Below, one piece after another: positions 3,085 to 32,511 of a DNA stretch of 47,765 nucleotides. Position numbers and translations under genes: made by a program. Source of the stretch: a bacterium (GTDB taxonomy: Bacteria; SAR324; NAC60-12); the NCBI GenBank assembly GCA_965233585.1, contig CBDDTI010000287.1, positions 1 to 47,765 of the forward strand. Direction: 5' to 3'. Below the pieces are notes generated by a model. That model was not told the origin of the DNA, searched no databases, and saw only the letters and a program-made list of their open reading frames with translations. Numbering within the stretch: position 1 is the stretch's first letter; every line of letters begins with the position of its first letter.

Positions 3085-3420
3085 CCAGTACCCCCCCACC
3101 CCCTCTGCGTCCCCCACGCACCCTAAGAGCAGACCCAAAACATTGAATTTACAGTTTTTTGTCCTTTTCGGATATAGAAACTACATCTTGCAACATGGTG
3201 AAACCTGCGTAAATAAAAAACATACCAGTGCTTTTGCTAGGTGCTGGCCAAAAAAAGATATAAATACCGTGACTTTTGCTACCAGAGGCAAAACATCATC
3301 GTAAATACCGTGGTTTTGGGCTTCCGACCCGCCAAAAACATTGGTATTTACGGTGTTGTTTGCCCCGAGTCTTGCAAAAACGTGCAAAAACACCAGCTAT
3401 TTGACAATTTTCGGCCCCTC
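3085..3420 (+). repeat. Dispersed repeat; diverged inverted copy at ~19600-19980
   Basis: Reverse complement of 3150-3350 (GAAGCCCAAAACCACGG..TAGCAAAA.TCACGGTAT..CAAGATGTAGTTTCTATAT) aligns by eye with 19680-19850. Confidence 0.75.
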
Positions 3421-3449
3421 ACTACAGGACTGAGAAAAAAGCTTCAGGG

Positions 3450-4440
3450 GCAGCAACAACAACAACAGCAACAACAACAACACCACCAACACCACCAACA
3501 CCAACAACACCAACAACACCAACTGCACCAACAGCACCAACAGCACCAACAGCACCGACAACACCGACAACAACAACACCAACAACATCAACAACACCAA
3601 CAACACCAACAACCCCAACAACCCCAACAACCCGAAAAACCCAACAACCCCAACAACCCCAACCACCCCAACAACCCCAGCAACCCCAACAACCCCAACA
3701 ACACCAACACCAACACCACCACCACCACCAACAACAACAGCAACAACGACAACAAGGACAACAACAACAACACCAACAACACCACCAACACCAACACCAC
3801 CAACAACACCAACTGCACCAACAGCACCAACAGCACCAACAGCACCAACAGCACCGACAACACCGACAACAACAACAACACCAACAACATCAACAACACC
3901 AACAACACCAACAACCCCAACAACCCCAACAACCCGAAAAAACCCAACAACCCCAACCACCCCAACCACCCCAACAACCCCAGCAACCCCAACAACCCCA
4001 ACAACACCAACACCAACACCAACACCACCACCAACACCACCACCAACAACAACAACAGCAACAAGGACAACAACAACAACAACCAACAACCAACAACCAA
4101 CAACAACAACAGCAACAACAACAGCAACAACAAGGACAACAACAACAACAAAAACAGCAACAACAACAGCAACAACAGCAGCAACCGCAATGACAGCAAC
4201 AACAGCAACAAAAGCAACGACAGCAACAATAGCAGCAACAACAACCAGAACAACAACAAGAACAACACCAACACCAGCGACAACAGCACCAGAAACAACA
4301 ACAACACCAGCAGCAGCAGCACCAGCAACAGCAACAGCAACAGCAACAACAACCGCGACAGCAACCGCGACAGCAACAGCGACAGCAACAAGAACAACCA
4401 CAACCACAACCACAACAACAACGACAGCAACAACAACATC
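3450..4440 (+). repeat. Compound (CAA/CAC/CAG)n microsatellite with internal ~290-300 bp duplication
   Basis: Low-complexity trinucleotide tract. Landmarks AACTGCACC (3521, 3811) and CCCGAAAAA (3631, 3933) are repeated. The poly-Q/N/T/V/L ORFs are by-products. Confidence 0.95.
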
Positions 4441-6897: not shown

Positions 6898-7108
6898 TGT
6901 GAATTCTAACCAGCATGTTGAGCGCATGATATGACATTCCTGTTTTGCACATGACATTCCAACGGCAATTCAACCATCTCCTCGCCGTCCGTGTGCAGTG
7001 ATCACTCGAGCTGCCCCTTTTAGCAAAAAGCCTGCGTGCTTCGCCTGTTGCAATTGCATTTGCACATGGAACCTTAAGACTTGGCACAAGCTGCAAGTGT
7101 CACAGTCA
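6898..7108 (+). repeat. 5' LTR (211 bp, TG...CA)
   Basis: Identical to 15865-16075 except one substitution (GCAATTGC vs GCCATTGC). Confidence 0.96.
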
Positions 7109-7110
7109 GT

Positions 7111-7127
7111 TGGCACCGGAGCTGGAC
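7111..7127 (+). promoter_or_regulatory. Primer-binding site (TGGCACCGGAGCTGGAC)
   Basis: TGG begins 2 nt after the LTR-terminal CA, the classic PBS position complementary to a tRNA 3'-CCA. The tRNA was not identified. Confidence 0.65.
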
Positions 7128-7135
7128 CCCTGGAG

Positions 7136-8297
7136 ATGTCATCAGACGATGCTACGTTTGATTGGTCACCTTCGGAAGTGGCGGCTGAGGAACGCCGATT
7201 AGACCGAGACCTTGATGGTGCTCCTCCAAGGGGTGATCCGACGGGACCTACAACTGGAGAAGAAGCCCAATGGCAGTGCCTTTCATGCCACTCTGCTGCA
7301 CGGAGATGGGATGATGAGAAGGGATACACATGTCCTACGTGTGGTGGATGTGAATACTTCAACGTGTCACAACCTACGAAGCTCGAAACACCCACTGGAA
7401 CATGGATGTATGTGCCTCATGGACCAGACTCTGTAGCAAGTGGTTCGGGTGACGCCTCTAGCTCCCCGACCCCTGTCAATCGTAGATCGGGTTTTGGTGG
7501 CCCCAAGCTATTTCATGGATACCCACCTGGTGATGCTCATGGAGGTGGATCTGAAAGAGCTGAGAGCGAGGCGCCGACCTTCGATCCGATTGTCAACCCT
7601 GATGAACCGATTCCTGGTGGCAGACGGCGCCGAAGACGTGGTGGAAGCCAAGTCAGCGAGCCTGCTGATGCACTACATGGCCCAGTTCTCCCCGATGCTG
7701 CGGTTCAACGAGACGATCCTGCAGAACTATACCAACGACATGGACATGGAGATGATATGCTTGATGTCATGCGACAGCTGTTGCATGAAAAGCGATCTAC
7801 TGCAAAGACTGGTAGCGAGGCCTCATGGAATAGCATGAGAGGGCCCGCACCTGGAGTGAGATGGAGAGGCGGTGCTCCACCTCTGCCGCCAAAGTGGATC
7901 TACCAACAGTCAGATCTACGAGCCTTTGCAAAGTATGAGAGAAAGGTGAGAACTTGGGAGCTTCAGGCAAAAAGCTTCATGACTGCCGCCGAGATGGGCC
8001 TGGCACTCTACACAAGCTTGCAAGGTGAAGCTGAAGCTGAAGCCGAACACCTGGAGTTATCCAAGATCAACCACAAGAATGGAGTCAGCTACATCCTTGA
8101 TGAACTTCGAGGACCCCTGCAACAGAAGGTACTCTTCCAGAAGAGAAAGCTCTTGGCTGACTTCGAGGGCGTTAGACGCCACAATGCCGAAACCGTCAGA
8201 CAGTATGTCAACCGGTATCGCAGAATTGAACGAGATCTACAAACCATTGGCATAGAGACCAGCAACATGTACGACAGTGAAGCTCGTGGAAACAGAT
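7136..8297 (+). CDS. gag: Gag N-terminal part (Zn-ribbon CLSC..CPTC plus capsid-like region); frameshift at ~8297
   Basis: First ATG after the PBS (MSSDDATF). Capsid-like AFAKYERKVRTW..LYTSLQGEA..YVNRYRRIE. Reading continues in the -1 frame as LERCQLSPDLQRLVLIG. Confidence 0.8.
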
Positions 8298-9234
8298 CCT
8301 GGAGCGTTGTCAGCTGTCTCCAGACCTACAACGACTGGTGCTGATTGGAGCCGGGAATTGCCTGGACTACGAGAAGATCACGGAGTCTATGTGCATGCAG
8401 TTTCCAGACTTCAAGCCAACTCCTATGGTTTGGACCTCCAGTCACAACAGACAGCAAGCAGACAACCAGACTTCAGCCTCTTCGAGCTCATCTTCCAACC
8501 GGAGCTCTGCTGGCACTTTCAGGTCGTCGTCTACTGCAACGTCTTCTGGAAAAGGACGTTTCACTGGAAAGGGGAAAGCACCAAAGACGTATCCCCATGG
8601 AAAAGGGCCTCCTCGCAGTGTCTTCCAAACGGAACAAGTCGAGGATGAGGCTGACAATGAGGAAGACGATGCAGAGGACTTCGAAGACGCAGAATGCCAA
8701 CCTGAAGATGGAGAAGAGCTGGAGCCGATTCCTGAAGAAGGAGACGGTGACTATGAGGAGGCAGATGCGCCTTCCATCGACGTTGAAGCCTTGGCCGACT
8801 TAGCTCAGGTGCTCACCGTCACCTCCAAGAAGCTCCAAGCCTCTGTTCTGGGACGGAAGTTCACTGGACGGAAATCGATAGAAGAGCGGAAGAAAACAAG
8901 CACATGCAGCGCTTGTGGCCAGACAGGTCACTGGGCAGGTGACTCAGCCTGTTCGATGTCGGCATCCAAACGCGATGGCGGTGGAAAAGGACAAAAAGGT
9001 GCTGGGGGTTCTTCCTTTTCATCTACATCCTCACCTGGTCAGAAGTATGTCAAGAAAGCCTATGTGGTAGGGGTTCAACATGGAGAACATTCACATGAAC
9101 CACAGGATGATGAAACTACCCCGAGCTCTTCATCAACATATTTTACCTTCACCACCAACCAAATTTTTGGGGCCGATGCAACATCAACTACATGGATCAC
9201 GAGTCCATTGACCTTGGGGGTTACATGGTTTTAG
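8298..9234 (+). CDS. gag: Gag C-terminal part with CCHC zinc knuckle
   Basis: CSACGQTGHWAGDSAC knuckle, with acidic and GK-rich linkers. Confidence 0.82.
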
Positions 9235-12200
9235 ATACTGCCTGCCAAAGATCATGCTGTGGTGAAGTTTGGTTGAAAACCCATGCCAAAATCCTGGAAC
9301 GACATTGTCTCAGGGTCAAGATGATCGAAAGCTCTGATCACTTCCAGTTTGGCTCAGGCAAGCCGATTGCAGCTGCAGAGCGTGCCTACATCCCCATCGA
9401 GATGGAAGGCCAGGAGACCAAGGGATTATTGTTTGGGGTTAGCGTTTTGTCCACCAACATACCTTTTTTGGCAAGCAGAACTTTGCTGGAACGTTTGGGT
9501 TGCATCATTGACATGTTCACCAAGACCATCACTTTTGCAAACCTTGGTGTTACATTGCCTTTGACTCACAAACATGGTCATTTAGCAGTCAATATTGCGA
9601 TGTTTTCAGAAGATTTGGCAAACCATCCGTGCTGGAAGCATCTCTCGCGAGATCAACTTTGGCATGAACCTGATCCTGAACTCATGTTTGCACCGGGAGC
9701 TTTCAACAAAGGCTTAATTCGTGATTTGCCGCCCGAAGCCTTGTTGCCTACGGATGTTCCGTGCGGCAGCTCCAGAATGGCTGAAGCGATGGCAGATACT
9801 GTATGCCCTGGTGATGACAATCGAGCTCAGGGCCTACAAGGCTATGTCGAGCATGGTGCGCTTTGGACTGGCAACCCGGTCTTGGATGACCTTGGACGAG
9901 AACATCAAGGAGATGGAGCGTCAACGCTCAGAGATTGTCAACAAAGCGCCGAAACAGGCCAATCCAGCGACATGCATGCACCCCGAGTACAAGAGGTACG
10001 GCAACGACAAGGGTTCGTTCAGCCGATGCAAGAGATGCCAACAGGTTTTCAAGTGGGACCCAAGTCAAAAAGGATGGCGCCCACATGGAAGTCCGCAGTC
10101 GCAAGTTTCTTCGCACTTGCCACTGCCCTCATCTTCCAACATCCTGGAGCCCACCAACAGGGGAACGAGTTCTTCGACATCGAGGACTACAACTTCCAAG
10201 TCCCGAGCGAAGCCCAAGGCCAGACCACAAGAAGTTTTCCTGCCAGCGATGGAGGAGATTTGGGATCCGGAGGCTTATCCTCCCGAGTCAGATGGCGGCG
10301 AGGATGGATACCACGGATGGGACGAAGCCATGGAGATCCAAGACTATGCATGAACGATGAGGCCGACTGGTGGGAAGTTGGCAAAAACGTGGTCACGAGG
10401 GTTCACAACATGCCACGCAAAAGTCTTTTCAACATGGATGACTTCTACAATGGCGAACCTTGTCCAGTGCATGTGAAACGACTGAGCCTGGAGTGCGCAG
10501 CCGAGATGAACTATGAGGATGGCAGGACACAAATGCTCACCTATGACTGGAGCACGTCCGGGGCATCCACTATGAAACAACACTGGACTGGGAAGACAAT
10601 TTTCCGCGTTCACCCTTTGCCTGAACGACATGTGTCAACCAACCTGGTGCGGAAGAGCTTGCGACATGCAGTTCGACAAGTCGCGCACTTGCTTCAGGTT
10701 GAGCATGATGTGATGCTGGCTGGCACTACATCCTCCTCTACTTCAACATCCTTGAAGAGCAGGCCACGGGTGGATTTATTAGAAACCTTTGCTGGACGTG
10801 CTGGAATCACTATGAAGGCTACCAAACTTGGTTTGAAAGCACTCCAACCCATTGACTACAACACCGGCTATGACCTTGAGAAGGCCAGCCACCAACAACA
10901 TGTGGACTATTTGATTGACCACTTCAAGCCCCTCTTCCTCGTGCAAGGCATCGACTGCCGTGATTGGTGTCTTTTACAAGACAACACCAACTACGTGAGA
11001 CGCAAGATCTTGCTTTTGATGCGGAGGGAGAAGGCCAGGAAGTTGCTACGTCGAGTAGTTCGTTGGTGTGTCAAACAAGCTGAAGCTGGAAGGTTTTTCC
11101 TTTTGGAGAACCCTGCAACAAGTCGACTTTGGCTTGAACCGCTGGTGCTGAGACTTTCAAGACTTCCAGGAGTCTATGCAGTTGTTTGCCATTCAGGCGC
11201 TTATGGCGGCACCAACTCCAAAGGCCAGATGATCAAGAAGAGTTTCAAGTTTCTTGGCAACTGCCCTTGCGTGCTAGAGCGACTGACCAGAAAACTTGAT
11301 TCAGAGCAACTGCTTCAATGTGTCCCTTTGGTTGGAAAAGAAACAACTCTTTCACAGCACTACCCTGATGAGATGATCAAGCAGATCGTGCAGGGAATCA
11401 AACAGACCGCTGCACAACATGATCCAGAACGTTTTCATGTTTTTTCCACAAGTTTTCAGGTGATGGCTGTGAACACAACACCGGATGATTGGGTTCCCAT
11501 TTTTGAATCTGCCCAGAAGTCCTTTGACATGACACGACAACGACGCTATGTTCTGCCCACATCAGACACGACATGGAAGATGGTTCAACAACTTGTGCAA
11601 TGGCATCAGCTTGAACGTGTGCAGATTGCGTATCAACCAACCATGCTGCGTTTGCCCTTGCACATTCCTCATACGCACCGTGGGTGGGCATTGCTCTACA
11701 ACGACCAGACCGTGGAAGTTGTTGAAGAGGACCTGGCGGATGTGAGACACCCAAGAGCCAAGTTCCGCAAACCTGTGAACATTGGCATCTTCTTCTTTGG
11801 ATATGCAACACCAAGTAGCCATGCAAATCAACCTGTTTCAGCACGACCTGATGTACAACCTCTACAAGAACCAGCTGAAGATGACCCACAAGCAATTGTG
11901 GCTCACAACACAGAGGGCATCACCTTTCCAAGGATGCCTGGTCCTTCACAAGACGTCAAGACCTTGCTTTCAAGACTTCATCGCAACCTTGGACATCCTC
12001 ACAACAATGAGTTGAAAAAGATGCTTGCGATGAATGGCATCAAAGATCAGAAGGTCTATGATGCAATTGAAGCTTTGACATGCGAATCTTGCTTGCGTGT
12101 GAGGGGACCTGGCAAACCTGAACCTGCAGGCATTCCTCAAGATGTGAGTTTGCAGTTTGGCGATGTTTTGCAGATCGACATCGTCTATGTCAGGGACATC

Positions 12201-13616
12201 ACCTCCACCAACTACATCTTCTTGGGCATCATTGATGAGTGCACGCACCTTCACATGGCCTTGCACTTGAATGACCGAAGTCCCGAGGAGGTGCACTACA
12301 AGTTTTCTACGTTTTGGGCCCGACCTTTTGGTTTTCCACTGAAGATCAAAGCTGATCCCGACGGAAGCTTCCGTGGATCATTCGAAGCGGCAATGGATGA
12401 AGCTGGAACCTACATGGACTACATCCCTGCCGAGGCCCACAACAAGATTGGTCTGATTGAAAGGCACAACGCCACCTTGAGAGAGCTGATGGAGAGAACC
12501 ATTGATGCAAGAGCAGTGGTAGGACCTGAAGCCATGGAACAAGCAGCCATAGCAGCCTGTTTCGCAAAGAACTCCTGCACATGGTCTTCAGGGCGACCTC
12601 CTTTTGTGGCGGCCTTCGGAAGAGTGCCACGCATGGGCATGAATCTTCTTTCAGATCAACATGGACTTGTAACTGGTAGAACACGTGAACAAGCTCAACG
12701 CGAAGCTGACTACATGCGTGCAGAAGCACAACAACATTTGTCAGCGATGAGTGTGGATAGCAACCTACGGCGTGCTTTGCTGAGGAAGTCTACCTCCAAC
12801 CAACTTCAAGAACTACCAGTTGGTTCCATTGCAGCATACTGGCGATGGACTGCGAAATCTGGCAAGAAGAGGGGTGGATTCAAACTGGCTCGTGTTTTGG
12901 GCCGTGACCCTGACAACAAGAGCATTTGGCTTCAAGCAGGCACCAACACCGTGAAGGTAGCACCACATCAAGTTCGACCAGCACTTGGATTTGAACAATG
13001 GAATCCCAACTACGACGACATCAAAGCTTTGAGGTCAGCTGTTGAAAACCTCCAACATGGCATTCTTCAAGACGAGCAACTACCAGATCCACCGCAAGGA
13101 CAAGAACTACCTGGTTTTGAAGAAGTGCAACCCGAGGTGCAAGTGCCTCCACCTGTTGGAATAGAAGATGGCATTCCCGAAGCACATCAACATGAGCTCA
13201 TTCCTGTGCCTCGGACACCTTTGCCTGATCCAGTGCAACAACCTCCTCAAATTCAACTTGAAGAGGAAGCTACACAAACGGATCCATACCAGCAGCAGCA
13301 GACGACCATCAACATGAATATGTCGTCACCAACCTACAGACAGACCATCATCCAGAACCAATCCTTTGGTATGAATGAAGCACAGCGCTCTAGACCCACA
13401 GTCAATGTGCCTGTCAGGAAACGACATGCTTCAAGGTCGAAAACACCTGTTCGACAACTACGAGCATTGACACCACATGGCGAAAGAGCCCAACCTGCTT
13501 CAGTACGACAGTTGCCTGATGAACCTTTTCTAGAGCAAGCACATCAACCTTATTCAGTGCAACCGTTGGCGAACCCACCTTTGCATTGGCACCGTCCAAT
13601 CCAGCCGGTGGTATAA
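9192..13616 (+). CDS. pol: Pol part 1: aspartic protease, two unknown domains, C5 DNA methyltransferase, integrase
   Basis: Protease MVLDTAC..IPFLASRTLL. DNMT ETFAGRAG/GIDC/ENP. Integrase HHCC (LHRNLGH..CESC) and DDE core (QIDIV..IIDE..ADPDGSF..GLIERHN). Confidence 0.92.
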   Translation: MDHESIDLGGYMVLDTACQRSCCGEVWLKTHAKILERHCLRVKMIESSDHFQFGSGKPIAAAERAYIPIEMEGQETKGLLFGVSVLSTNIPFLASRTLLERLGCIIDMFTKTITFANLGVTLPLTHKHGHLAVNIAMFSEDLANHPCWKHLSRDQLWHEPDPELMFAPGAFNKGLIRDLPPEALLPTDVPCGSSRMAEAMADTVCPGDDNRAQGLQGYVEHGALWTGNPVLDDLGREHQGDGASTLRDCQQSAETGQSSDMHAPRVQEVRQRQGFVQPMQEMPTGFQVGPKSKRMAPTWKSAVASFFALATALIFQHPGAHQQGNEFFDIEDYNFQVPSEAQGQTTRSFPASDGGDLGSGGLSSRVRWRRGWIPRMGRSHGDPRLCMNDEADWWEVGKNVVTRVHNMPRKSLFNMDDFYNGEPCPVHVKRLSLECAAEMNYEDGRTQMLTYDWSTSGASTMKQHWTGKTIFRVHPLPERHVSTNLVRKSLRHAVRQVAHLLQVEHDVMLAGTTSSSTSTSLKSRPRVDLLETFAGRAGITMKATKLGLKALQPIDYNTGYDLEKASHQQHVDYLIDHFKPLFLVQGIDCRDWCLLQDNTNYVRRKILLLMRREKARKLLRRVVRWCVKQAEAGRFFLLENPATSRLWLEPLVLRLSRLPGVYAVVCHSGAYGGTNSKGQMIKKSFKFLGNCPCVLERLTRKLDSEQLLQCVPLVGKETTLSQHYPDEMIKQIVQGIKQTAAQHDPERFHVFSTSFQVMAVNTTPDDWVPIFESAQKSFDMTRQRRYVLPTSDTTWKMVQQLVQWHQLERVQIAYQPTMLRLPLHIPHTHRGWALLYNDQTVEVVEEDLADVRHPRAKFRKPVNIGIFFFGYATPSSHANQPVSARPDVQPLQEPAEDDPQAIVAHNTEGITFPRMPGPSQDVKTLLSRLHRNLGHPHNNELKKMLAMNGIKDQKVYDAIEALTCESCLRVRGPGKPEPAGIPQDVSLQFGDVLQIDIVYVRDITSTNYIFLGIIDECTHLHMALHLNDRSPEEVHYKFSTFWARPFGFPLKIKADPDGSFRGSFEAAMDEAGTYMDYIPAEAHNKIGLIERHNATLRELMERTIDARAVVGPEAMEQAAIAACFAKNSCTWSSGRPPFVAAFGRVPRMGMNLLSDQHGLVTGRTREQAQREADYMRAEAQQHLSAMSVDSNLRRALLRKSTSNQLQELPVGSIAAYWRWTAKSGKKRGGFKLARVLGRDPDNKSIWLQAGTNTVKVAPHQVRPALGFEQWNPNYDDIKALRSAVENLQHGILQDEQLPDPPQGQELPGFEEVQPEVQVPPPVGIEDGIPEAHQHELIPVPRTPLPDPVQQPPQIQLEEEATQTDPYQQQQTTINMNMSSPTYRQTIIQNQSFGMNEAQRSRPTVNVPVRKRHASRSKTPVRQLRALTPHGERAQPASVRQLPDEPFLEQAHQPYSVQPLANPPLHWHRPIQPVV
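9754..10353 (+). CDS. Nested +1-frame ORF (199 aa) with CxH-GN-CxxC Zn-finger-like motif
   Basis: ATG at 9754, TGA at 10351-10353. Motif TCMHPEYKRYGNDKGSFSRCKRC is paralleled by TCPHP..KGTNQYGTWTKCLQC in the second element. The stop overlaps an in-frame pol ATG (ATGA). Confidence 0.65.
   Translation: MFRAAAPEWLKRWQILYALVMTIELRAYKAMSSMVRFGLATRSWMTLDENIKEMERQRSEIVNKAPKQANPATCMHPEYKRYGNDKGSFSRCKRCQQVFKWDPSQKGWRPHGSPQSQVSSHLPLPSSSNILEPTNRGTSSSTSRTTTSKSRAKPKARPQEVFLPAMEEIWDPEAYPPESDGGEDGYHGWDEAMEIQDYA
10767..11405 (+). other. C5 cytosine DNA methyltransferase domain within Pol
   Basis: Motif I LLETFAGRAG, motif IV QGIDC (Cys 10956-10958), motif VI FLLENP (11106-11114), then IKKSFKFLGN and SQHYP, in C5-MTase order. 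Confidence 0.85.
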
Positions 13617-15901
13617 CGCCTCCACTAGAAACACCACAGACCGAGGTGATCGTGGTGCAAGATGATGATGACACTGCAGGGCAACCTGCATCGTCTCATG
13701 GACAACAAGTTCTACCACAGAGCCAGACCGCTGTGGCAGACGACATTGGAGATCAAGCTCCAACAACACCAGAAGCATTGCGGCTGACACCAGCCAAAAG
13801 AACCTTTGATGAAGCTGCAGCAGATCAAACTTTTGATGTTTCCTTTTTGCGACCATTTCGAGATGAAAGGTCGACCAATTCAATTTCTTCAACAATGCAA
13901 GATCACTACGTCGACTTCGACAATTATGATGTCGACGGCATGACGTTGATGGCTAGAGGATTTGATGGATCACCAGATGTCTACATGCCGTACTCCAACA
14001 AGAGCTTCATGACGGCATACCGCCAACATGGCGACTACAACGGCAATGGCGACAGCGACGAATCTGACGCTGATGTCAAGGATTTCCGTGGAGAGCAAAA
14101 GCCCATTCCACCTACCTTGACCCGCCAAGAGAAGAAAGCCTTAGACAAAGAGATCCCTTGGCAGAACATCATGCGTATGGATGAAGCCACCATCCAGCAG
14201 TACGTTGATGCAGCAAAAGCTGAAGAGCGCTCATGGCTTGACTTCAGCAGTGTGCGCCCCATTTCCAAGAAGGAAGCTGCCAAGATCCTTGGAGACAAGG
14301 AACTACGCAAACGGGTTCTACGTTCCCGTGCAGCCTTCAGAGACAAGTCTAGAGGAGTTGGTCCACTACGACCGAAGTGCCGCATTGTCGCAGTGGGATG
14401 CAGCGATCCAGACCTTTGGACGCTTCAACGTGAAAGCGCCACTCCAACCAGACAGTCTGAGTTCTTGGTTTTTGCAATCTACATAGCAGGCCGAAATGGG
14501 AAGATGATGGGCAATCCCAACGCAGTTTGGTGTTTGTGGGCTGGCGATGTCAAAACGGCCTTCCTTCAGAGGACACCCGAGCAGAGGAGAATGCCAATTT
14601 TTCTTCTTCCACCTGCTGATGGAATTTGCAAAAGAGCCGGCATTTTCAGAGGAGCAGATCTACTGGAAGTTGTGGGTAACATTTATGGACTTGCTTCAGC
14701 ACCACGCACTTGGCAGATGCATGTTGTGAAGGTTTTGAAACAGATTGGATACCAACAATCTTCTCTGGATAAGATGCTTTTCTACTACTACCAGAAGTTT
14801 GAAGGAGAATCAGAACCTGTCCTTTGCGCTGTCATCATAGTGTATGTGGATGACTTCCTGTTGACCCACGACAGCCGCTATGACCGCAACCACCTGCTGA
14901 AGATGTTCAAGTGGGGAAGCCAGAATGAGCTGACCTTAGAGAACAGCCTGGACTTCAAGGGTAAGCGCATTTCCTTGAAGCACGACCGCAACAATAATGA
15001 GTACACCCTCAAGCTCGACCAGGAGAAGTTCATTTCAGACATGAAAGGTGGCACCGTTCCGAAGAAACGGCACAAAGAGACCTTGGATGCCTCCGACCTG
15101 GGAGAGTTTAGAAGTGTGTCAGGATGTTTGCAATGGTTGGCTGGACAGACGAGACCTGACGTTGCTGCAACCGTCAGTCTGTGCAGCAGAGGTGCGAAGT
15201 CAACATACGAAGACTTGCACAACATGTATATGGCTGTTGAGCACCTGCATCAAACAAAAGATCATGGCTTGGTTTTGCGACCCGTGCCCATCGACTATTC
15301 CACGATGATCACCACCTATGCTGATTCCAGTTGGGCCAATGCTGTTGGACATGCAAGTCAACATGGTGCTTTGATTTTGCTTTCCAGCCCTAAGGCTACT
15401 GATGCGATTCAACCTGGACTCCTGGTGGATTGGAAGAGTTCGAGATCTACGCGCGTTTGCCGATCCACTCTTGCTGCTGAGGCCTCTACGGCCGATATGA
15501 GTGTTGATCGTGCCAGCCTGATCAACTACATGCTGAGTGAGCTGCTTCTGAACCGGCCGGCGTTTCACATTCCCTCTTGCGATTTGTTGCGAATGGTTCA
15601 GGCAACCGACTGCCGTTCGCTTTACGATGTCTTAGTTAGTGAGAATCCTCGCACCGAGGACAAGAGGACCATTGTGACCATCCGGTCGGCCCAGCAATTT
15701 CTGTCTAGGGACAATGTGTTTTGGATTCCAACTGCAATACAATTTGCAGACGGTTTGACCAAAGTGAGTCAAAACCTGATGATCTCATTTTACAACTGGC
15801 TTCAAGAGCCTTGGATCCAATTGCACGAGTGCCAGAGGAATGCCAATCAACAGACTTACTGGAGTGTGAATTCTAACCAGCATGTTGAGCGCATGATATG
15901 A
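13586..15901 (+). CDS. pol: Pol part 2: copia-type reverse transcriptase and RNase H
   Basis: RT motifs KCRIVAVG, GDVKTAFLQ, IYGLASAPRTW, VYVDD. RNase H motifs TYADSSW, RSTLAAEA, TDCRSLYD, QFADGLTK. The stop lies inside the 3' LTR. Confidence 0.95.
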   Translation: MAPSNPAGGITPPLETPQTEVIVVQDDDDTAGQPASSHGQQVLPQSQTAVADDIGDQAPTTPEALRLTPAKRTFDEAAADQTFDVSFLRPFRDERSTNSISSTMQDHYVDFDNYDVDGMTLMARGFDGSPDVYMPYSNKSFMTAYRQHGDYNGNGDSDESDADVKDFRGEQKPIPPTLTRQEKKALDKEIPWQNIMRMDEATIQQYVDAAKAEERSWLDFSSVRPISKKEAAKILGDKELRKRVLRSRAAFRDKSRGVGPLRPKCRIVAVGCSDPDLWTLQRESATPTRQSEFLVFAIYIAGRNGKMMGNPNAVWCLWAGDVKTAFLQRTPEQRRMPIFLLPPADGICKRAGIFRGADLLEVVGNIYGLASAPRTWQMHVVKVLKQIGYQQSSLDKMLFYYYQKFEGESEPVLCAVIIVYVDDFLLTHDSRYDRNHLLKMFKWGSQNELTLENSLDFKGKRISLKHDRNNNEYTLKLDQEKFISDMKGGTVPKKRHKETLDASDLGEFRSVSGCLQWLAGQTRPDVAATVSLCSRGAKSTYEDLHNMYMAVEHLHQTKDHGLVLRPVPIDYSTMITTYADSSWANAVGHASQHGALILLSSPKATDAIQPGLLVDWKSSRSTRVCRSTLAAEASTADMSVDRASLINYMLSELLLNRPAFHIPSCDLLRMVQATDCRSLYDVLVSENPRTEDKRTIVTIRSAQQFLSRDNVFWIPTAIQFADGLTKVSQNLMISFYNWLQEPWIQLHECQRNANQQTYWSVNSNQHVERMI

Positions 15902-16075
15902 CATTCCTGTTTTGCACATGACATTCCAACGGCAATTCAACCATCTCCTCGCCGTCCGTGTGCAGTGATCACTCGAGCTGCCCCTTTTAGCAAAAAGCCT
16001 GCGTGCTTCGCCTGTTGCCATTGCATTTGCACATGGAACCTTAAGACTTGGCACAAGCTGCAAGTGTCACAGTCA
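15865..16075 (+). repeat. 3' LTR (211 bp)
   Basis: Direct repeat of 6898-7108, followed by GA and then GTTAC. Confidence 0.96.
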
Positions 16076-17147
16076 GAGTTACAAGTAAAATGCTTCTTTT
16101 GAGCGATTTCCAGGGTTTGTGAAAGATTTCCAGGGTTTGTGCCGCCTTTTTTGAGCGTTTTTGACATCTCGAGGCCGATTAGTTGTGAAAGATGAAAGCG
16201 ATCGTTGAGTGCCCTGAGCCAGTGCATGTTATGGATCCAAAAGGGACAGGCTCATTCAGAGTCTATCGAGTGCCTTGAGCTTACTTCGCAAGATTTTGCA
16301 AGCGCTTTAGTCTTGAGTCATGAGTCCGTTTGACTCACATTGACTCATGAGCGGCTCGATTGTGCTGTCGTCAGCATGCCATTTGGCAAATAATGCTGGT
16401 CGTATAACCTTGTGGTGCCGTGAAGGCACTGATCTGAATCAAACCAGCTGATCCACGACTGAAGGCAGTTCCTGCTGAAAAAACAAGGAAAAAAACATGG
16501 TTGTATGTTTGCTGGGACAGGCTGTGTGAATCATTTGTTTGATTTTTCTGCTCAGAAACGATGTTCAACAAGTTTCAGCTCTCATTTGCCGAAGTTTCAC
16601 TCCCAGCGGGGCAATGTGCGCACGAAATCACACGGCCAACCCCGGGTAACAAAGGCAGAGCGTGCAGGGCAGTATAGACGTTCCACATGTTTCCACCGGG
16701 TTTCCAATAGTTCATCATGACATGGCCTTTTAAAAAGCTCATGCTGGTTGATGTTGGTTGTCTAGCGTTCCACCACATTCCATCATTCATACATTGCGAA
16801 AGCTTGTAAACCAGGAATGCTAGCAGGCTAGCAGGGTTGGCTCTGATAAAGGCTTTGGCCCAGCAATTTTGCAATTTCCTAGAATTGTTCCTCACAACTG
16901 ACACCTCGGCCCTCGGTTACTTTGACATCTTATATATATATATATATTTGTGTGTGTATAAATTATGTATATTTTATCTACAACACGCACACACATATAT
17001 ACAGAGAGAGAGAGGGACTTGCACACCGCCGATGCCATAAGGTTTATGTATAGTAGTGTGAGTGTTGGTGTTGTTTTGCGCGCAGGTGCAGAGCACAGTA
17101 TGATGTGCTTTTCATACCGCAGCTTGTAACACATTTTTTGTCGCATG

Positions 17148-20287: not shown

Positions 20288-20726
20288 CAAGATGCAGCCC
20301 ACGAACCCGAATGCAGTCATGTAGAACACTTTTGTGAAACAAGTTAATTGAACAGTCTATATTTTCCCCCTGTTACCGTACCAGTGCACAGTGGACTGTG
20401 GAATGCGGAAGAGGGTGGAGTGCAAAGTGTGGAGTGTGAAGTGTAAAGTGTAGAGTGCGGAGTGTAAAGTGTGGAGTGTAAAGTGCGGAGTGTAAGGTGT
20501 AAGGTGTGGAGTGCGGAGTGTAAAGTGTAGAGCGTGGAGTGTGGAGTGTAAAGTGTAGAGTGTAAAGTGTAGAGTGTAAAGTGTAGAGTGTAGAGTGTGG
20601 AGTGTGGAGTGTAAAGTGTGGAGTATGGAGTGTAAAGTGTGGAGTGAGGAGTGTAAAGTGAAAAGTGTAAAGTGTAAAGTGTGGCAGAGTGTAGAGTGCA
20701 AAGTGTAGAATGCAAAGTGTAGAGTG
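20288..20726. repeat. Left part of a dispersed repeat with a 7-bp (GGAGTGT/AAAGTGT/AGAGTGT)n tract, interrupted by the second copia
   Basis: Heptamer tract at 20413-20726 resumes at 25196 directly after the candidate 3' LTR. Confidence 0.8.
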
Positions 20727-21781
20727 CCCACGGACGGTGCAGGCCACGTGCCCACACCCGGAGGATTTCATGGTGAAGGGCACCAACCAGTATGGAACAT
20801 GGACGAAGTGCCTGCAATGTGAAGCTCAGAAAGCCAAAGGCCGACCTCCAAGGAGGCCAGACAGCAGCCGACGATGTGCACGGCAGCCAGGGCAGAGATC
20901 CAGGGCCATGCAGAGAAGCTGAAGAACAAGTCCAAAGCCGAAGCCGCCTCAAGTCAGTCCTGAGTCGTCATTCTCAGGAAATGGGCCTCGTCTCTGGTGA
21001 ATGCATCCACTCTGGTGATGCAGCAGCAAGCGGCTTTGACCCAGCAACTGGGATACGCTCTGTGAACAGCTCCATCGCAGCCATCGATGAAAATGAGCCA
21101 GTGGCCGATCACTGGTGCCGGCCAAGGACGACGAGATGGACAATCCGAACGAGGGAGCTGGGAGCACTTCACCTAGGCTCCAAAATGATCATGCTGAGAG
21201 AGCTCGTCCCAGAAGGTGGTGAGGGTTGGTTTGTTTGCACCTTTTCTGGCCAAATGGGTCAGAATCCATCTGCGCATGAGAGTTTCACATTTTTTGTGGC
21301 ATCCACCAGAGTCCGAACAGGTTTTTCGTTTGCAGGAATCCCAAGCTTTGTTTTAGTTTTGATTTGGTTTTTCGGACGTGCTGGATGATCGAGAAATTTC
21401 CCCTATATTTCCTTTCAAAGAAGCAGAAGAATTCCACCCAGAGAGAGCTCAAGGGAATTGATCTGTACAGCGCACGATTTAGCATTTTGTCAGGACAAGA
21501 AACCAGAAATAATGCGCAGGAGACGCAAGAACTCCAAGAAAAGGCAGCGGGGACGCGAAGACCCCATCCTAGGAATGGATTAGGATATGGTGATTACAAG
21601 AACAAAAGAAATAGCGCGGAGGAGACGCAAAGACTCCAAGAAAAGGCGGCGCATGGAGACGCAAGGATTCCTGAGTAGGATTAGGAGCTTGTTGCCAGGA
21701 ACCACCAGCTCGTTAGAGCTCAGTGCCCCTAGTTCAGACCGTGCTCCGTCATATCCTGACGCCGCTTTGGGAAGAGGCAAT

Positions 21782-25004: not shown

Positions 25005-25195
25005 TGTTGAATCTAACCACCAGTCATGATCCCAATGCTGTTTCCACTTGTCAGAGCCACTGCACGATGTCAGGTGTTGCTTCCTCCTGTCATGATCATC
25101 CCACATTCATAGCCTCAAGCCCATAGACTCCGCCCTGTCACTGCGAGCAACTGTTGGATGGAAAAGGCGCTTCGCGGGCCTCTTGCCACTTCTCA
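25005..25195 (+). repeat. Candidate 3' LTR of the second copia (191 bp, TG...CA)
   Basis: Follows the RNase H stop and GGGGAGC. Starts TGTTGAATCTAACC (cf. TGTGAATTCTAACC in element 1). Ends CA exactly where the host heptamer tract resumes. No partner LTR is present. Confidence 0.6.
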
Positions 25196-25760
25196 AGTGT
25201 AAAGTGTAGAGTCTGGAGTGTAAAATGTGGAGTGTGGAGTGCGGAGTGTAAAGTAAGGAGTGTGGAGTGTAAAGTAAGGAGTGTGGAGCGTAAAGTGTGG
25301 AGTGTGGAGTGTAAAGTGTAGAGTGTGGAGTGTGGAGTGTGGAGTGTGAAGTGTGGAGTGTAGAGTGTGGAGTGTAGAGTGTGGAGTGTAGAGTGTAGAG
25401 CACGCAATGCGACACGTCTGAAGTGCTGCACCTGCCACGCAAAATGACGATGGAGTCTCCAAAGTGCCGCGCCTGCCACGAGAATTGCAACTCATCGTGT
25501 GGAAACGACGCAAAAGTATTGCGCCCGAGCCTGCCACACCAAACGACTTTCGGCACGTTATCAAGCAGGTTGGAATGTCACAAAGAGCCACGCCTGCCAC
25601 GCAAAACGACATGACAACCTGCTTGGAAACATTCAGAAAGGAGAGGTGTTACAGCTTCCCCCATAGACACGGCGAGGCCACAGGGAAACTAGAGACTCGA
25701 GACGAGACATGTTGGAGCATCAAGACGAGCATTTCGTGCGAGACCCCCTCAAATTTTCAC
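25196..25760. repeat. Right part of the heptamer-tract dispersed repeat with CCTGCCAC subrepeats
   Basis: Heptamer tract to ~25400, then recurring CCTGCCAC(GCAAAA) units. Duplicated at 34854-35431. Confidence 0.8.
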
Positions 25761-26577: not shown

Positions 26578-26931
26578 GGATTTCAATTTACTTTCAATTG
26601 ATTTCAATTTACTTCAATTGATTTCAATTTACTTTTAATTTACTTTCAATTTACTTTCAATTGATTTCAATTTACTTTTAATTCACTTTCAATTTACTTT
26701 CAATTTACTTTCAATTGATTTCAATTTACTTTTAATTTACGTTCAATTTACTTTCAATTGATTTCAATTTATTTTTAATTTACTTTCAATTTACTTTCAA
26801 TTGATTTCAATTTATATACTTTTAATTTAATTTCAATTGATTTCAATTTACTTTTAATTTACTTTCTATTTACTTTCAATTGAATTCAATTTACTTTCAC
26901 TTGATTTCAATTTACTTTTAATTTACTTTCA
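26578..26931. repeat. AT-rich 10-11 bp minisatellite (TTTCAATTTAC / TTTCAATTGA)
   Basis: Direct tandem units. Confidence 0.92.
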
Positions 26932-29900
26932 TTTTTTCACTCCAAAAAGTTGGTGTTCACAATAGAGTACCATCCAAACAATTATATTATTGAGTAACTG
27001 AGCCACTCATGAGGTACCCCCTTGAAAAATTGTCTGGATGCTGCTTTTTAATAAGGGTTTAATAAGGCATCTAATTATTTGGGAAACCTTGCATTTTAAA
27101 GTTTTAACACAACTATGGCTTTCTAAAGTGAAAGGACCAGCTTTACCCAAAGAAAGGTGGAGAAAGGGTTTCGTTTCTTTTTTCACTCCAAAAAGTTGGT
27201 GCTCACAATAGAGTACCATCCAAACAATTATATTATTCAGTAACTGAGCCACTCAGGAGGTACCCCTTTGAAAAATTGTCTGGATGCTGTTTTTTAATAA
27301 GGGTTTAATAAGGCATCTAATTATTTGGAAAACCGTGCATTTTAAAGTTTTAACACAACTATGGCTTTCTAAAGTAAGGGGCCAGCTTTACCCAAAGAAA
27401 GGTGGAGAAAGGGTTTTGCTTTTTTTTTCACTCCCAAAAGTTGGTGCTCAAAATAGAGTACCATCCAAACAATTATATTATTCAGTAACTGAGCCACTCA
27501 TGAGGTACCCCCTTGAAAAATTGTCTGGGTGCTGTTTTTGATAAGGGTTTAATAAGGCATCTAATTATTTGGAAAACCTTGCATTTTAAAGTTTTAACAC
27601 AAATATGGCTTTCTAAAGTAAAGGGACCAGCTTTACCCAAAGAAAGGTGGAGAAAGGGTTTTGCTTTTTTTCACTCCCAAAAGTTGGTGCTCACAATAGA
27701 GTACCATCCAAACAATTATGTTATTGAGTAACTGGGCCACTCATGAGGTACCCCCTTGAAAAATTGTCTGGGTGCTGTTTTTTAATAAGGGTTTAATAAG
27801 GCATCTAATTATTTGGGAAACCTTGCAGTTTAAAGCTTTAACACAACTATGGCTTTCTACAGTAAAGGGGCCAGCTTTACCCAAAGAAAGGTGGAGAAAG
27901 GGTTTTGCTTTTTTTTCACTCCCAAAAGTTGGTGCTCACAATAGAGTACAATCCAAACAATTATATTATTGAGTAACTGAGCCACTCATGAGGTACCCCC
28001 TTGAAAAATTGTTTGGATGCTGTTTTTCAAATAAGGGTTTAATAAGGCATCTAATTACTTGGGAAACCTCGCATTTTAAAAGCTTTAACACAAATATGGC
28101 TTTCTAAAGTGAAAGGACCAGCTTTACCCAAAGAAAGGTGGAGAAATGGTTTTGTTTCTTTTTTCACTCCAAAAAGTTGGTGCTCACAATAGAGTGCCAT
28201 CCAAACAATTATATTATTCAGTAACTGAGCCACTCATGAGGTACCCCTTTGAAAAATTGTCTGGATGCTGTTTTTAAATAAGGGTTTAATAAGGCATCTA
28301 ATTATTTGGGAAACCTTGCATTTTAAAGTTTTAACACAACTATGGTTTTCTACAGTAAAGGGGCCAGCTTTACCCAAAGAAAGGTGGAGAAAGGGTTTTG
28401 CTTTTTTTTCACTCCCAAAAGTTGGTGCTCACAATAGAGTACCATCCAGGCAATTATATTATTGAGCAACTGAGCCACTCATGAGGTATCCCCTTGAAAA
28501 ATTGTCTGGGTACTGTTTTTTAATAAGGGTTTCATAAGGCATCTAATTATTTGGAAAAACCTTGCATTTTAAAAGCTGTAACACGAATATGGCTTTCTAA
28601 AGTGAAAGGACCAGCTTTACCCAAAGAAAGGTGGAGAAAGGGTTTTGCTTTTTTTCACTCCCAAAAGTTGGTGCTCACAATAGAGTACCATCCAGGCAAT
28701 TATATTATTGAGCAACTGAGCCACTCATGAGGTATCCCCTTGAAAAATTGTCTGGGTACTGTTTTTTAATAAGGGTTTCATAAGGCATCTAATTATTTGG
28801 AAAAACCTTGCATTTTAAAAGCTGTAACACGAATATGGCTTTCTAAAGTGAAAGGACCAGCTTTACCCAAAGAAAGGTGGAGAAAGGGTTTTGTTTTTTT
28901 CACTCCCAAAAGTTGGTGCTCACAATAGAGTACCATGCAAACAGTTATATTATTGAGTAACTGAGCCACTCATGAGGTATCCCCTTGAAAAAATGTCTGG
29001 GTGCTGTTTTTTAATAAGTGTTTAATAAGGCATCTAATTATTTGGAAAACCTTGCATTTTAAAGTTTTAACACAAATATGGTTTTCTACAGTAAAGGGAC
29101 CAGCTTTACCCAAAGAAAGGTGGAGAAAGGGTTTTGCTTTTTTTTCACTCCCAAAAGTTGGTGCTCACAATAGAGTACCATCCAAACAACTATATTATTG
29201 AGTAACTGAGCCACTCATGAGGTACCCCCTTGAAAAATTGTCTGGGTGCTGTTTTTTAATAAGGGTTTAATAAGGCATCTAATTATTTGGGAAACCTTGC
29301 ATTTTAAAGCTTTAACACAACTATGGCTTTCTACAGTAAAGGGGCCAGCTTTACCCAAAGAAAGGTGGAGAAAGGGTTTTGCTTTTTTTTCACTCCCAAA
29401 AGTTGGTGCTCACAATAGAGTACCATCCAAACAATTATATTATTGAGTAACTGGTCCACTCATGAGGTACACCCTTGAAAAATTGTCTGGATGCTGTTTT
29501 TTAATAAGGGTTTAATAAGGCATCTAATTATTTGGAAAACATTGCATTTTAAAGTTTTAACACAACTATGGCTTTCTAAAGTGAAAGGACCAGCTTTACC
29601 CAAAGAAAGGTGGAGAAAGGGTTTCGTTTTTTTTTCACTCCTCATGAGGTTCCTCTTTGAAAAATTGTCTGGATGCTGTTTTTTTAATAAGGGTTTAATA
29701 AGGCATCTAATTATTTGGAAAACCTTGCATTTTAAAGTTTTAACACAAATATGGCTTTCTAAAGTAAAGGGACCAGCTTTACCCAAAGAAAGGTGGAGAA
29801 AGGGTTTTGTTTTTTTTCACTCCCAAAAGTTGGTGCTCACAATAGAGTACCATCCAAACAATTATATTATTCAGTAACTGAGCCACTCATGAGGTACACC

Positions 29901-31425
29901 TTTGAAAAATTGTCTGGGTGCTGTTTTTTAATAAGGGTTTAATAAGGCATCTAATTATTTGGAAAACCTTGCATTTTAAAGTTTTAACACAAATATGGCT
30001 TTCTAAAGTAAAGGGACCAGCTTTACCCAAAGAAAGGTGGAGAAAGGGTTTTGCTTTTTTTTCACTCCCAAAAGTTGGTGCTCACAATAGAGTACCGTCC
30101 AAACAAGTATGTTATTGAGTAACTGGGCCACTCATGAGGTACCCCCTTGAAAAATTGTCTGGGTGCTGTTTTTTAATAAGGGTTTAATAAGGCATCTAAT
30201 TATTTGGGAAACCTTGCATTTTAAAGCTTTAACACAACTATGGCTTTCTACAGTAAAGGGGCCAGCTTTACCCAAAGAAAGGTGGAGAAAGGGTTTTGCT
30301 TTTTTTTCACTCCCAAAAGTTGGTGCTCACAATAGAGTACAATCCAAACAATTATATTATTGAGTAACTGAGCCACTCATGAGGTACCCCCTTGAAAAAT
30401 TGTTTGGATGCTGTTTTTTAAATAAGGGTTTAATAAGGCATCTAATTACTTGGGAAACCTCGCATTTTAAAAGCTTTAACACAAATATGGCTTTCTAAAG
30501 TGAAAGGACCAGCTTTACCCAAAGAAAGGTGGAGAAATGGTTTTGTTTCTTTTTTCACTCCAAAAAGTTGGTGCTCACAATAGAGTGCCATCCAAACAAT
30601 TATATTATTCAGTAACTGAGCCACTCATGAGGTACCCCTTTGAAAAATTGTCTGGATGCTGTTTTTAAATAAGGGTTTAATAAGGCATCTAATTATTTGG
30701 GAAACCTTGCATTTTAAAGTTTTAACACAACTATGGTTTTCTACAGTAAAGGGGCCAGCTTTACCCAAAGAAAGGTGGAGAAAGGGTTTTGCTTTTTTTT
30801 CACTCCCAAAAGTTGGTGCTCACAATAGAGTACCATCCAGGCAATTATATTATTGAGGAACTGAGCCACTCATGAGGTATCCCTTTGAAAAATTGTCTGG
30901 GCACTGTTTTTTAATAAGGGTTTCATAAGGCATCTAATTATTTGGAAAAACCTTGCATTTTAAAAGCTGTAACACGAATATGGCTTTCTAAAGTGAAAGG
31001 ACCAGCTTTACCCAAAGAAAGGTGGAGAAAGGGTTTTGTTTTTTTTCACTCCCAAAAGTTGGTGCTCACAATAGAGTACCATGCAAACAGTTATATTATT
31101 GAGTAACTGAGCCACTCATGGGGTATCCCCTTGAAAATTGTCTGGGTGCTGTTTTTAAATAAGGGTTTAATAAGGCATCTAATTATTTGGAAAAACCTTG
31201 CATTTTAAAAGCTTTAACACAAATATGGTTTTCTACAGTAAAGGGGCCAGCTTTACCCAAAGAAAGGTGGAGAAAGGGTTTTATTTTTTTCACTCCCAAA
31301 AGTTAGTGCTCACAATAGAGTACCATCCAGACAATTATATTGTTGAGTAACAGAGCCACCCATGAGGTACTTTTGAAAAATTGTCTCGATGTTTTTTTAA
31401 ATAAGGGTTTGATAAGGCATCTAAA
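26932..31425. repeat. 245-bp satellite array, ~18 monomers, with one ~182-bp deleted monomer
   Basis: Equivalent ORFs at 29001, 29246 and 29491 give period 245. Variant series repeats at offset 2391. Confidence 0.97.
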
Positions 31426-32511
31426 ATAAAATCAAAAATAAACATAAATAGAAAAATAATTTAAAAAAATAAAGTTAATTAAAGCATTTGGAAAAAATAA
31501 AAATTGAAAAAAACAATCTGGAAAAAAAATCTCACAATAGAGGCCCCCTTCCCACAATTAGCATGTGCTGAATTAGGAGCAAGAAATTTCTCACAATAGG
31601 GTACCATCTCTTTAATCGGGTGCAAACATTATATATATGTTATTTCCTAATTATATAATGCATATACATATATACATATATACATATATACATATATATA
31701 TATATACACGTGCATGTACTTGCATGTGCTCTCTCATAAATGAACGCTTCATCTTGATTAGGTTTGATCTGTTTCGCCGCTGCGCAGAGTGCTGAAAGTA
31801 CTTCGCGGTCGGCGTGCCGGTGCACCAACAGCACTTCTGGAGTTTGAAGACTTTGTCATTTTCAAAATAATGAATGAATTGTTCAGGTGTAAACACCCTC
31901 TGGACCTAAATGTGATCCTGCTTGCTTGAAATATCGTGGAATACTTGCATGGAGGCGGTTGGATAGCAGCAGTCCATTCTGCGGCCCTGCTCCCTTACAA
32001 GCCAAATATCGCTTGATGCGGATTGATTTTTAAGATGTCATGCTGGGCCATGGTCTCTGCAGCGTTTCAAAACCACGGCTTGCAAACAGATTGAAACCAG
32101 TGACTGCTATAGCCCACCAGCCACCAAGTGATGCAAATGCAAACGTAATAATTATAACGTAACTGTATATATTTGCACCGTACATATGTGTGCGTGCGTA
32201 CTTGTATGTGTTTTACCATGATGATATACAATAATTCTGTGGATCGCAAGAACACGATTGTAAGCTCAAACGCCGGTTGCAAACAGATAATAGACAACAG
32301 ATTGAGAATGATTCAGCAGTGATGTTTCAGGGTTGCACTTGGTTGGCACGCCCAAGTGAAGGAATATAATTACTGGAGGTCAATTGCCATGACCTGCAGC
32401 GAAATATTTCACAACGGCGAAAACTTTGACATTTTAGCTGCCTGTCTGGATTTATGCACAATGCCAGACGCGCTGCAACAAAGAAGCTTTTGTGACAGCA
32501 ACTGGACTGAG

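Follow-up and report, generated by a model that had tools for sequence, protein, structure and literature searches.

A candidate zinc-finger gene overprinted in the +1 frame of pol in a copia-like retrotransposon, probably of dinoflagellate origin

The window analysed here (the whole 47,765-nucleotide stretch of contig CBDDTI010000287.1, assembly GCA_965233585.1) contains a Ty1/copia-like long terminal repeat (LTR) retrotransposon, hereafter element 1, whose pol frame (frame 0) carries within it, between the protease and a DNMT-fold domain, a second open reading frame (ORF) in the +1 frame that could encode a small zinc-finger protein. We consider it very probable that positions 9754-10353 are truly dual coding. 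The fuller statement, that this is a real gene nested in the gag-pol of a dinoflagellate copia-like element and expressed from an AUG of its own, is one towards which we lean on balance. Three features expected of dual coding were found in this region: openness of both frames beyond chance, retention of both frames in relatives, and purifying selection on the nested frame. The central inference of an earlier reading of this DNA (the sequence-only reading), namely that a real gene is overprinted in the +1 frame of pol, is thus upheld, both frames having been maintained in several diverged families.

The nested ORF runs from an ATG at 9754 to a TGA at 10351-10353 (199 codons; stop-to-stop 9718-10353), and the initial remark that the pol and +1 frames both stay open for about 200 codons turned out to be exact. 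The motifs first pointed out in the product are also all present: TCMHP (T73-C74-M-H76-P), followed after five residues by GN (G83-N84) and after seven more by CKRC (C92-K-R-C95), then the basic stretch KSRAKPKAR at residues 149-157 and an acidic tail. The parts of this region are as follows.

9754..10353, + strand: nested +1 ORF, a 199-residue zinc-finger protein plus its TGA
9754..9756, + strand: conserved AUG, the likely start of the nested ORF (the Met position is kept among relatives)
9775..9942, + strand: N-terminal helical hairpin, residues 8-63 (AlphaFold2 model)
9973..10077, + strand: zinc-ribbon core with C74, H76, C92 and C95, then W101 and W108 (conservation in 60 sequences; four short strands in the model)
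10117..10137, + strand: LPLPSSS linear motif (L122, P123 and P125 at least 90% conserved)
10198..10224, + strand: basic patch KSRAKPKAR
10261..10350, + strand: acidic, aromatic C-terminal tail, predicted to be disordered
10350..10353, + strand: ATGA, in which the +1 stop TGA overlaps a pol-frame ATG
9700..10349, + strand: pol-frame spacer over the nested gene, with the lowest conservation of frame 0, no Pfam match and no stop

Apart from these two frames, the third forward frame is open over 9890-10360 (156 codons, where about four stops would be expected) and has four stops in 9754-9889; all three forward frames are open together across about 460 nucleotides.

The double opening is beyond chance. 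When the codons of the +1 frame were permuted (20,000 trials), frame 0 stayed open in 1/10,000 (P=1e-4), and the reverse permutation of the frame-0 codons left the +1 frame open in 2/10,000. Synonymous resampling with the codon usage of the element gave a mean of 13.6 frame-0 stops and never an open frame (0/20,000), the observed number of stops being 0. The manner of this avoidance can be followed codon by codon, since no frame-0 stop can arise unless a +1 codon ending in T is followed by one starting with AA, AG or GA: T-ending codons occupy 0/54 of these risky positions and 30/144 of the others (Fisher 3.5e-5), and the control regions (protease, DNMT-integrase and reverse transcriptase) have 19-22% T at the equivalent positions. 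The longest off-frame open run elsewhere in the element is 133 codons. GC content by codon phase did not separate the frames, GC1 and GC3 both being high.

The +1 protein belongs to a sizeable set of relatives. A word-index search returned five close ones, two of them full length at 56% identity with the stop at the same position, and an exhaustive phmmer search returned 97 representatives (clusters at 50% identity) at E<=1e-3, of which 83 have at most 383 residues. Across an alignment of 60 sequences C74, N84, G87 and C92 are invariant, and H76, R81, G83, C95, W101, W108, L122, P123 and P125 are at least 90% conserved; the relatives have in common the helical hairpin, a C-x-H...C-x2-C zinc ribbon, the LPLPSSS motif, the basic patch and the acidic tail.

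The pol frame, for its part, is kept through the same region in diverged families. Scans of metagenome and genome contigs with the family alignment gave no confirmed locus, so the relatives were judged from their proteins. A search with the frame-0 protein found P0134 (96% identity), P0135 (49%), P0136 (48%, a gene model), P0137 (35%) and P0138 (33%), all of which read straight through, what they have there being the zinc core and LPLPSSS as read in frame 0; this frame is also kept in P0140, P0141, P0155 and P0160. Polyproteins of seven diverged families read through the region in frame 0, and two of the frame-0 clusters have members that are complete single-ORF polyproteins of 3,003 and 2,777 residues. 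At the place homologous to ATGA the frame-0 relatives have M-K, M-M or V-N, all compatible with the same TGA.

A frame-0 protein constrains what its DNA can encode in the +1 frame, each pair of adjacent residues allowing about 2.9 residues on average, and we used this to look for the pattern C-x-H-x4-R-[YH]-G-N-x2-G-x4-C-x2-C-x5-W hidden in the +1 frame. In 8/13 proteins examined (P0001, P0134, P0135, P0136, P0137, P0138, P0140 and P0141) a single site permits this pattern, namely the spacer, and in P0139, P0104, P0105, P0013 and P0020 no site does. For one family the two frames can be put together: the same DNA can encode P0137 in frame 0 and P0022 in the +1 frame over 123 consecutive codons, with one inconsistent codon between two chain-consistent blocks, and together the two proteins determine every nucleotide of a 112-codon block except at 4 sites.

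The comparison of the window with this P0137/P0022 family over 109 codons (a single pair of families, the nucleotides of the second deduced from the two proteins) gives an amino-acid identity of 0.43 in the +1 frame against 0.26 in frame 0, and nucleotide differences of 0.45, 0.39 and 0.58 at the first, second and third +1 codon positions. We infer that the +1 frame is the selected one and frame 0 is not, because variability peaks at the +1 third position and is lowest at the frame-0 third position. Across five families the identity of frame 0 itself is 0.46-0.77 in the protease, falls to 0.22-0.40 in the spacer, where it rises locally at the zinc core, and is 0.42-0.57 in the DNMT-fold core. 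As far as such comparisons of sequence can tell, then, it is the +1 frame that is shown to be under amino-acid constraint, and the pol frame appears here as an unconserved linker whose only visible constraint is its freedom from stops. This linker has no stop codon, and the ribosomes that make the polyprotein must therefore read through it.

The contig itself is reliable around the nested gene. Over 8200-10800 it was compared with contigs from four sequencing runs, two from RNA libraries and two whose library type is not recorded and was assumed to be DNA. Since in each of the four an extra base follows 8295 and another follows 9200, the gag/CCHC and CCHC/protease frame breaks are single-base deletions or errors peculiar to this contig; the 96% identical relative P0134 has gag, CCHC, protease, spacer and DNMT in a single ORF. 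At either frame boundary the four runs are free of indels; the sole indel in the nested region is the lack of 11 bases at 9926-9938 in one diverged contig of run X7. Position 9715 is C in 4/4 runs, in agreement with P0004, and T in our contig, so that the +1 stop shortly before the ORF is likewise peculiar to the contig. The RNA-library contigs are unbroken across 9476-10022 and 10117-10543, and contig depth is maximal in the bin 10114-10200 in all four runs.

Several points weigh against a nested gene. That both frames are open on one molecule is direct for the window's own family only and inferred for that of P0137, and the search for frame-0 relatives admitted only proteins of 825-2,625 residues, a filter biased towards open copies. 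In the P0137 family taken alone (where T-ending codons are scarce overall) neither the avoidance of stops (0/32 vs 8/76, p=0.10) nor the permutation test (P=0.05) is significant. No splice joint or leader sequence was seen over the region in the RNA-library contigs, and these contigs cannot show RNA ends, may be contaminating DNA, and prove neither transcription nor translation. The absence of any fold or family match leaves no clue to the function of the +1 protein. Finally, 14 of the 97 relatives exceed 400 residues, and in the nine of these that were read the finger shares a frame with protease or DNMT parts, to which it is fused; the remaining five (P0012, P0048, P0054, P0069 and P0073) were judged by motif tests, in four cases also by Pfam, and P0095 by motifs only. 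Two Polarella gene models, P0086 and P0104, also carry the finger in frame.

How the nested gene might be expressed is best approached from its AUG. Among relatives extending at least 16 residues upstream, 39/42 have a Met at most 16 residues ahead of the W of PPxW, the distance being 5-12 in nearly all of them and 7-9 in most; this count becomes 26/29 once two false motif matches and 11 near-duplicates are removed, and the frame-0 residues at the same place vary (D-V, N-A, H-A/Y-A). Because this Met is conserved while the frame-0 residues are not, the alignments suggest an independent translation start at AUG 9754. The zinc-finger protein would then be made separately from this AUG, and, as the AUG lies about 2.8 kb into the element, a shorter RNA would be needed, which might arise by cis-splicing, by spliced-leader trans-splicing or from an internal promoter. 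Spliced-leader or subgenomic transcripts, which the sequence-only reading suggested looking for, drew no support from either the RNA-library contigs or the search for a leader motif: the loose ends listed for the RNA contigs are related copies or adapter and not leader, and a 15-base part of the dinoflagellate spliced leader has one match with two mismatches at 9344-9358, which 23/100 shuffles equal.

The finger might instead be the end of a transframe product, in which a +1 ribosomal frameshift or polymerase slippage leads from the gag-protease frame into a gag-protease-zinc-finger protein ending at TGA 10351, an arrangement that could set the ratio of short to full-length product. We regard this as unlikely. 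It is true that the +1 frame is open for 48-60 codons upstream of the AUG in P0004-P0006, that the stop near 9715 belongs to this contig only, that fused protease-finger ORFs recur in several families, and that Ty1, of the same superfamily, uses a +1 frameshift. However, the Met stands at a fixed distance before the first helix where the pol-frame residues are variable; no slippery signal of Ty1/Ty3 type (CTTAGGC, GCGAGTT), no XXXYYYZ and no homopolymer of six or more was found in 9500-10360, signals of other kinds remaining possible; and off-frame open runs of 50-130 codons are common in the element. The fused ORFs, moreover, change frame variously before or after the first helix, as random frameshift mutations would.

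A second alternative takes the finger to be an ordinary in-frame domain of pol (gag-protease-zinc finger-DNMT-integrase-reverse transcriptase) that in this family has been displaced by two compensating frameshifts, either mutational in dead copies or programmed (+1 then -1), the open pol frame being incidental. The sequence-only reading had itself named a finger in frame with pol as the sign of such a pair of frameshifts, and on the surface this is what the 14 long relatives offer: besides the two Polarella gene models, P0014, whose cluster has 12 members, reads zinc finger-DNMT-integrase, and in P0016, P0058, P0056 and P0097 the finger is fused to neighbouring parts. A closer look at the places where the frame changes speaks for another origin. 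P0020, P0015, P0013 and P0022 pass from protease-frame to +1 text at four different places, and P0014 passes from the +1 frame to frame 0 just past LPLPSSS-NIL, before its DNMT-integrase part. P0123 and P0105 (Cladocopium), like P0086 and P0104 (Polarella), are models of eukaryotic genes in which parts of the protease are left out, and in P0104 the hidden +1 W..W helix motif lies 71 residues ahead of the in-frame zinc core instead of 53-65 as elsewhere, a spacing that suggests a frame change inside the gene model. Judged from these proteins, the in-frame relatives are best explained as frameshifted copies or as artefacts of introns or of gene modelling. To this must be added that the pol frame specifically avoids stops, which would be pointless if ribosomes left frame 0, that intact ORFs of 2,777-3,003 residues cross the region in frame 0, that the frames were confirmed by 4/4 runs, and that at least five diverged +1 relatives end where the window ORF ends. 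We therefore hold an in-frame domain to be improbable.

It is more improbable still that the finger is a relic, once in frame or a separate cistron and now decaying, with its conservation reflecting recent copy ancestry, since the many broken copies in these genomes and the degraded state of the second element of the window have to be set against 97 clusters at 50% identity with invariant zinc ligands, substitutions concentrated at +1 third positions, and LTRs of this copy that are 100% identical over 212 nucleotides.

Returning to the nested gene, its product has a predicted architecture and no recognised family. The AlphaFold2 model has a confident hairpin of two helices (residues 8-36 and 47-63; mean confidence, pLDDT, per 10-residue block of 87-95 over residues 11-60), then the Cys/His ligands on a ribbon of four strands (residues 79-110, with block means of 79-89), and a C-terminal tail predicted to be disordered. 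A Pfam search of the +1 protein gave no family; seven of the 60 aligned members, the window protein not among them, have a below-threshold match to HEWD (PF20576), which in three members scores 17-20 bits against a cut-off of 27 and covers profile positions 12-39 only, and a literature search on HEWD gave nothing relevant. Foldseek against the PDB gave 0 matches at E<=1e-3 for the model, VIA-align wide gave generic helical matches only (Z<=5.3, the helices filling the list and the ribbon being barely covered), and the ESM Atlas gave no usable match. For the roles suggested in the sequence-only reading (nucleic-acid binding, chromatin targeting, anti-silencing or partnership with the methyltransferase), none of these fold and family searches offered a pointer. 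A complex prediction of zinc-finger residues 1-118 with the pol segment 10353-11852 scored 0.00, which speaks neither for nor against binding.

The domain layout (a dimer-like hairpin, a zinc ribbon, a Ser/Pro motif, a basic patch resembling a nuclear localisation signal and an acidic aromatic tail) hints at a possible nuclear adaptor or a nucleic-acid-binding accessory factor. Zinc ribbon, basic patch and acidic tail together might make the protein a nuclear accessory factor of the element, a proposal we hold with low confidence, as we do the more specific one that such a factor could bind nucleic acid or tether the integration or methylation machinery.

Element 1 extends over 6898-16076 and its ends are a direct repeat of 212 nucleotides, 100% identical. 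Its order is gag with a CCHC knuckle, protease (DTACQRS), spacer, beta-rich domain, DNMT-fold domain, integrase and reverse transcriptase/RNase H.

6898..7109, + strand: 5' LTR (at least part), a 212-nucleotide repeat 100% identical to 15865-16076
6935..9234, + strand: gag with CCHC knuckle, in ORFs 6935-8344 and 8281-9234 (weak Pfam gag and zf-CCHC matches)
9114..13616, + strand: pol frame 0 with protease, spacer, beta domain, DNMT-fold domain and integrase, a 1,500-codon open frame
13523..15901, + strand: reverse transcriptase-RNase H ORF, in another frame in this contig (RVT_2, 32.0 bits vs cut-off 31.6)
15865..16076, + strand: 3' LTR (at least part), the direct repeat
10770..11433, + strand: DNMT-fold domain of pol, model residues about 140-360 (Foldseek)
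20746..20820, + strand: zinc-core-like motif TCPHP...CLQC, only weakly related, in the degraded second element

Element 1 is a young Ty1/copia-like LTR retrotransposon: it has flanking LTRs and the order protease-integrase-reverse transcriptase-RNase H with a reverse transcriptase of copia type, an assignment that rests on a gag_pre-integrase match short of its cut-off (E=0.0017) and on an RVT_2 match just above its own (32.0 bits), the best RVT_2 score among relatives being 44.5 bits. Its pol frame 0 is supported by the DTACQRS protease motif, by the gag_pre-integrase match at residues 952-994 and by a family profile match. The integrase and reverse transcriptase ORFs overlap in different frames at 13523-13616, and P0138, P0155 and P0160 have both in one ORF. 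Near the gag N-terminus (about 7240-7340, and in the relatives P0013, P0135 and P0160) there is, besides the CCHC knuckle, a CxxC...CxxC motif resembling a zinc ribbon; the gag N-terminus of P0135 has a weak match to Pfam Zn_ribbon_RRN7.

The contig is filed under a bacterium, its source assembly (12 Mb, 92% completeness) being recorded as a prokaryote genome. Its content is LTR retroelements and long arrays of a 245-bp satellite, the nearest relatives of its proteins carry the names Cladocopium goreaui, Polarella glacialis and Symbiodinium sp., and the sequencing runs that contain it include coral metagenomes and metatranscriptomes. We think that it is probably dinoflagellate (Symbiodiniaceae-like) DNA, a eukaryotic contig mis-binned into a bacterial assembly; the assembly has only one copy of the element. 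The satellite arrays (about 245 bp, GC about 36%) lie at 26850-31430 and 36510-45000 on either side of a 5.5-kb block of higher GC (about 31.4-36.5 kb), and 3333-4300 is a tandem array with a 9-base period and an extreme strand skew (GC skew -0.53, AT skew +0.55).

The domain next to the nested gene was called a DNMT in the sequence-only reading, a label that its predicted fold bears out and that sequence searches do not. An AlphaFold2 model of the segment (mean pLDDT 75) has 16 Foldseek matches at E<=1e-3, every listed one being DNMT3A, DNMT3B, DNMT1 or MET1 (E about 4e-4, probability 0.97-1.00). On the side of sequence, Pfam DNA_methylase gave no match even at E<=10 in six proteins, and a PDB sequence search of the domain gave none at E<=1. 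The strings ETFAG, IDC and ENP are conserved in 13 sequences of the domain, and may, as judged by eye against the consensus, correspond to the catalytic motifs I, IV (Pro-Cys) and VI (ENV). As modelled, element 1 is thus a copia-like element with a DNMT-fold domain undetected by Pfam. Between the nested gene and this domain, 10353-10640 encodes a conserved beta-rich domain (W...R.H..PR..LF...TY.W...WTG.T.F) without family assignment, which is missing from P0155 and from the Polarella families.

DNMT-bearing LINE and DIRS elements are known from Symbiodinium, and de Mendoza et al. (2018, PMC5890265) state that the abundant Copia elements are without any DNMT domain; the words "zinc" and "frameshift" have 0 occurrences each in that paper.

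The second element of the window, which keeps only reverse transcriptase and RNase H matches, was at first taken as a divergent copia element in which the finger is conserved. A finger-like motif is indeed present there and keeps the invariant C, N, G and C, but it is a weak match (family-profile E=0.0015 among 1,207 six-frame pieces) in a degraded element, with a stop 35 codons later and no second open frame, and the case for conservation rests on the database relatives and not on this element. Taken as a whole, the sequence-only reading was right in the double opening and in the conserved overprinted gene, and is only weakly borne out as regards conservation in the second element. Short blocks of tandem repeats (20344-20767 and 25107-25577, HSTLYTL-like heptads on the minus strand) flank the second element and could represent its terminal repeats.

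Viruses, whose genome size is limited, typically have long conserved overlapping genes; in the pol of cellular LTR retrotransposons such genes are unexpected. If the nested gene is real, the annotation of a retrotransposon lineage that abounds in coral symbionts lacks at least one protein, which standard gene callers miss because it is nested on the same strand; it would be a natural test case for overprinting beside a tolerant polymerase spacer, independent of hepadnaviruses, and it poses the testable question by what route an internal cistron is expressed in dinoflagellates, which trans-splice their mRNAs. Taken with the DNMT-fold domain, the gene would suggest that transposons and DNA methylation interact more widely in Symbiodiniaceae than the known LINE and DIRS elements show.

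One may go further and imagine, as a speculation that we ourselves rate as doubtful, an old dinoflagellate copia-like clade akin to a small retrovirus, with a giant gag-pol ORF containing an unrecognised DNMT-fold domain and a nested zinc-finger gene carried on a spliced-leader trans-spliced or cis-spliced subgenomic RNA and read from its own AUG, the product acting in the nucleus with the methyltransferase or the integrase, for example in targeting or masking insertions. If this is true, no overprinted accessory gene will have been described in an LTR retrotransposon before this one, and trans-splicing would be tied to the expression of retroelements. In our literature searches (supplements being outside their scope) we met with neither this protein nor any ORF nested in the pol of an LTR retrotransposon.

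Comparison with known systems helps to place the arrangement. Influenza PA-X, potyvirus P3N-PIPO and alphavirus TF are made from shifted-frame ORFs that lack a separate start codon and rely on a conserved slippery site. The region studied here resembles them in being a short shifted-frame ORF within a polyprotein gene, with suppression of stops and of synonymous changes; it differs in having a conserved AUG and no recognisable slippery site, in its greater length (199 codons) and in encoding a folded domain. In Ty1, TYA and TYB overlap by a few dozen bases with a +1 frameshift, and the downstream ORF continues pol. The superfamily and the +1 relation between the two ORFs are the same in our case, whereas in element 1 it is frame 0 that carries pol onward, the +1 ORF being a separate gene of 199 codons closed by a stop of its own. 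The gain of a non-canonical protein module is also known in other LTR elements, such as the ALKBH domain of orchid Ty3/gypsy elements (PMC9289625). Modules captured in this way lie in frame or between pol and the LTR, not inside pol in a second frame. The same hosts have two kinds of retrotransposon with a cytosine-methyltransferase module, SymbioLINE-Dnmt and SymbioDIRS-Dnmt3 (PMC5890265), which are LINE and DIRS elements, unlike the copia-like element described here.

The closest known analogue is the envelope ORF that hepadnaviruses carry nested in their polymerase ORF. Its preS part overlaps the "spacer" of P, a poorly conserved linker between polymerase domains. In both cases a complete ORF in another frame lies inside the polymerase gene of a reverse-transcribing element, over a linker, with mostly one of the two frames constrained. 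The nesting of the hepadnavirus envelope (preS/S) ORF within the polymerase ORF is described in PMC5604429. In hepadnaviruses, however, the nested gene encodes a membrane envelope protein, has its own promoters and is thought to be the younger frame, whereas here no promoter or subgenomic RNA is known and the nested frame is the better conserved of the two, encoding what is predicted to be a folded, soluble zinc-finger protein of a dinoflagellate LTR element.

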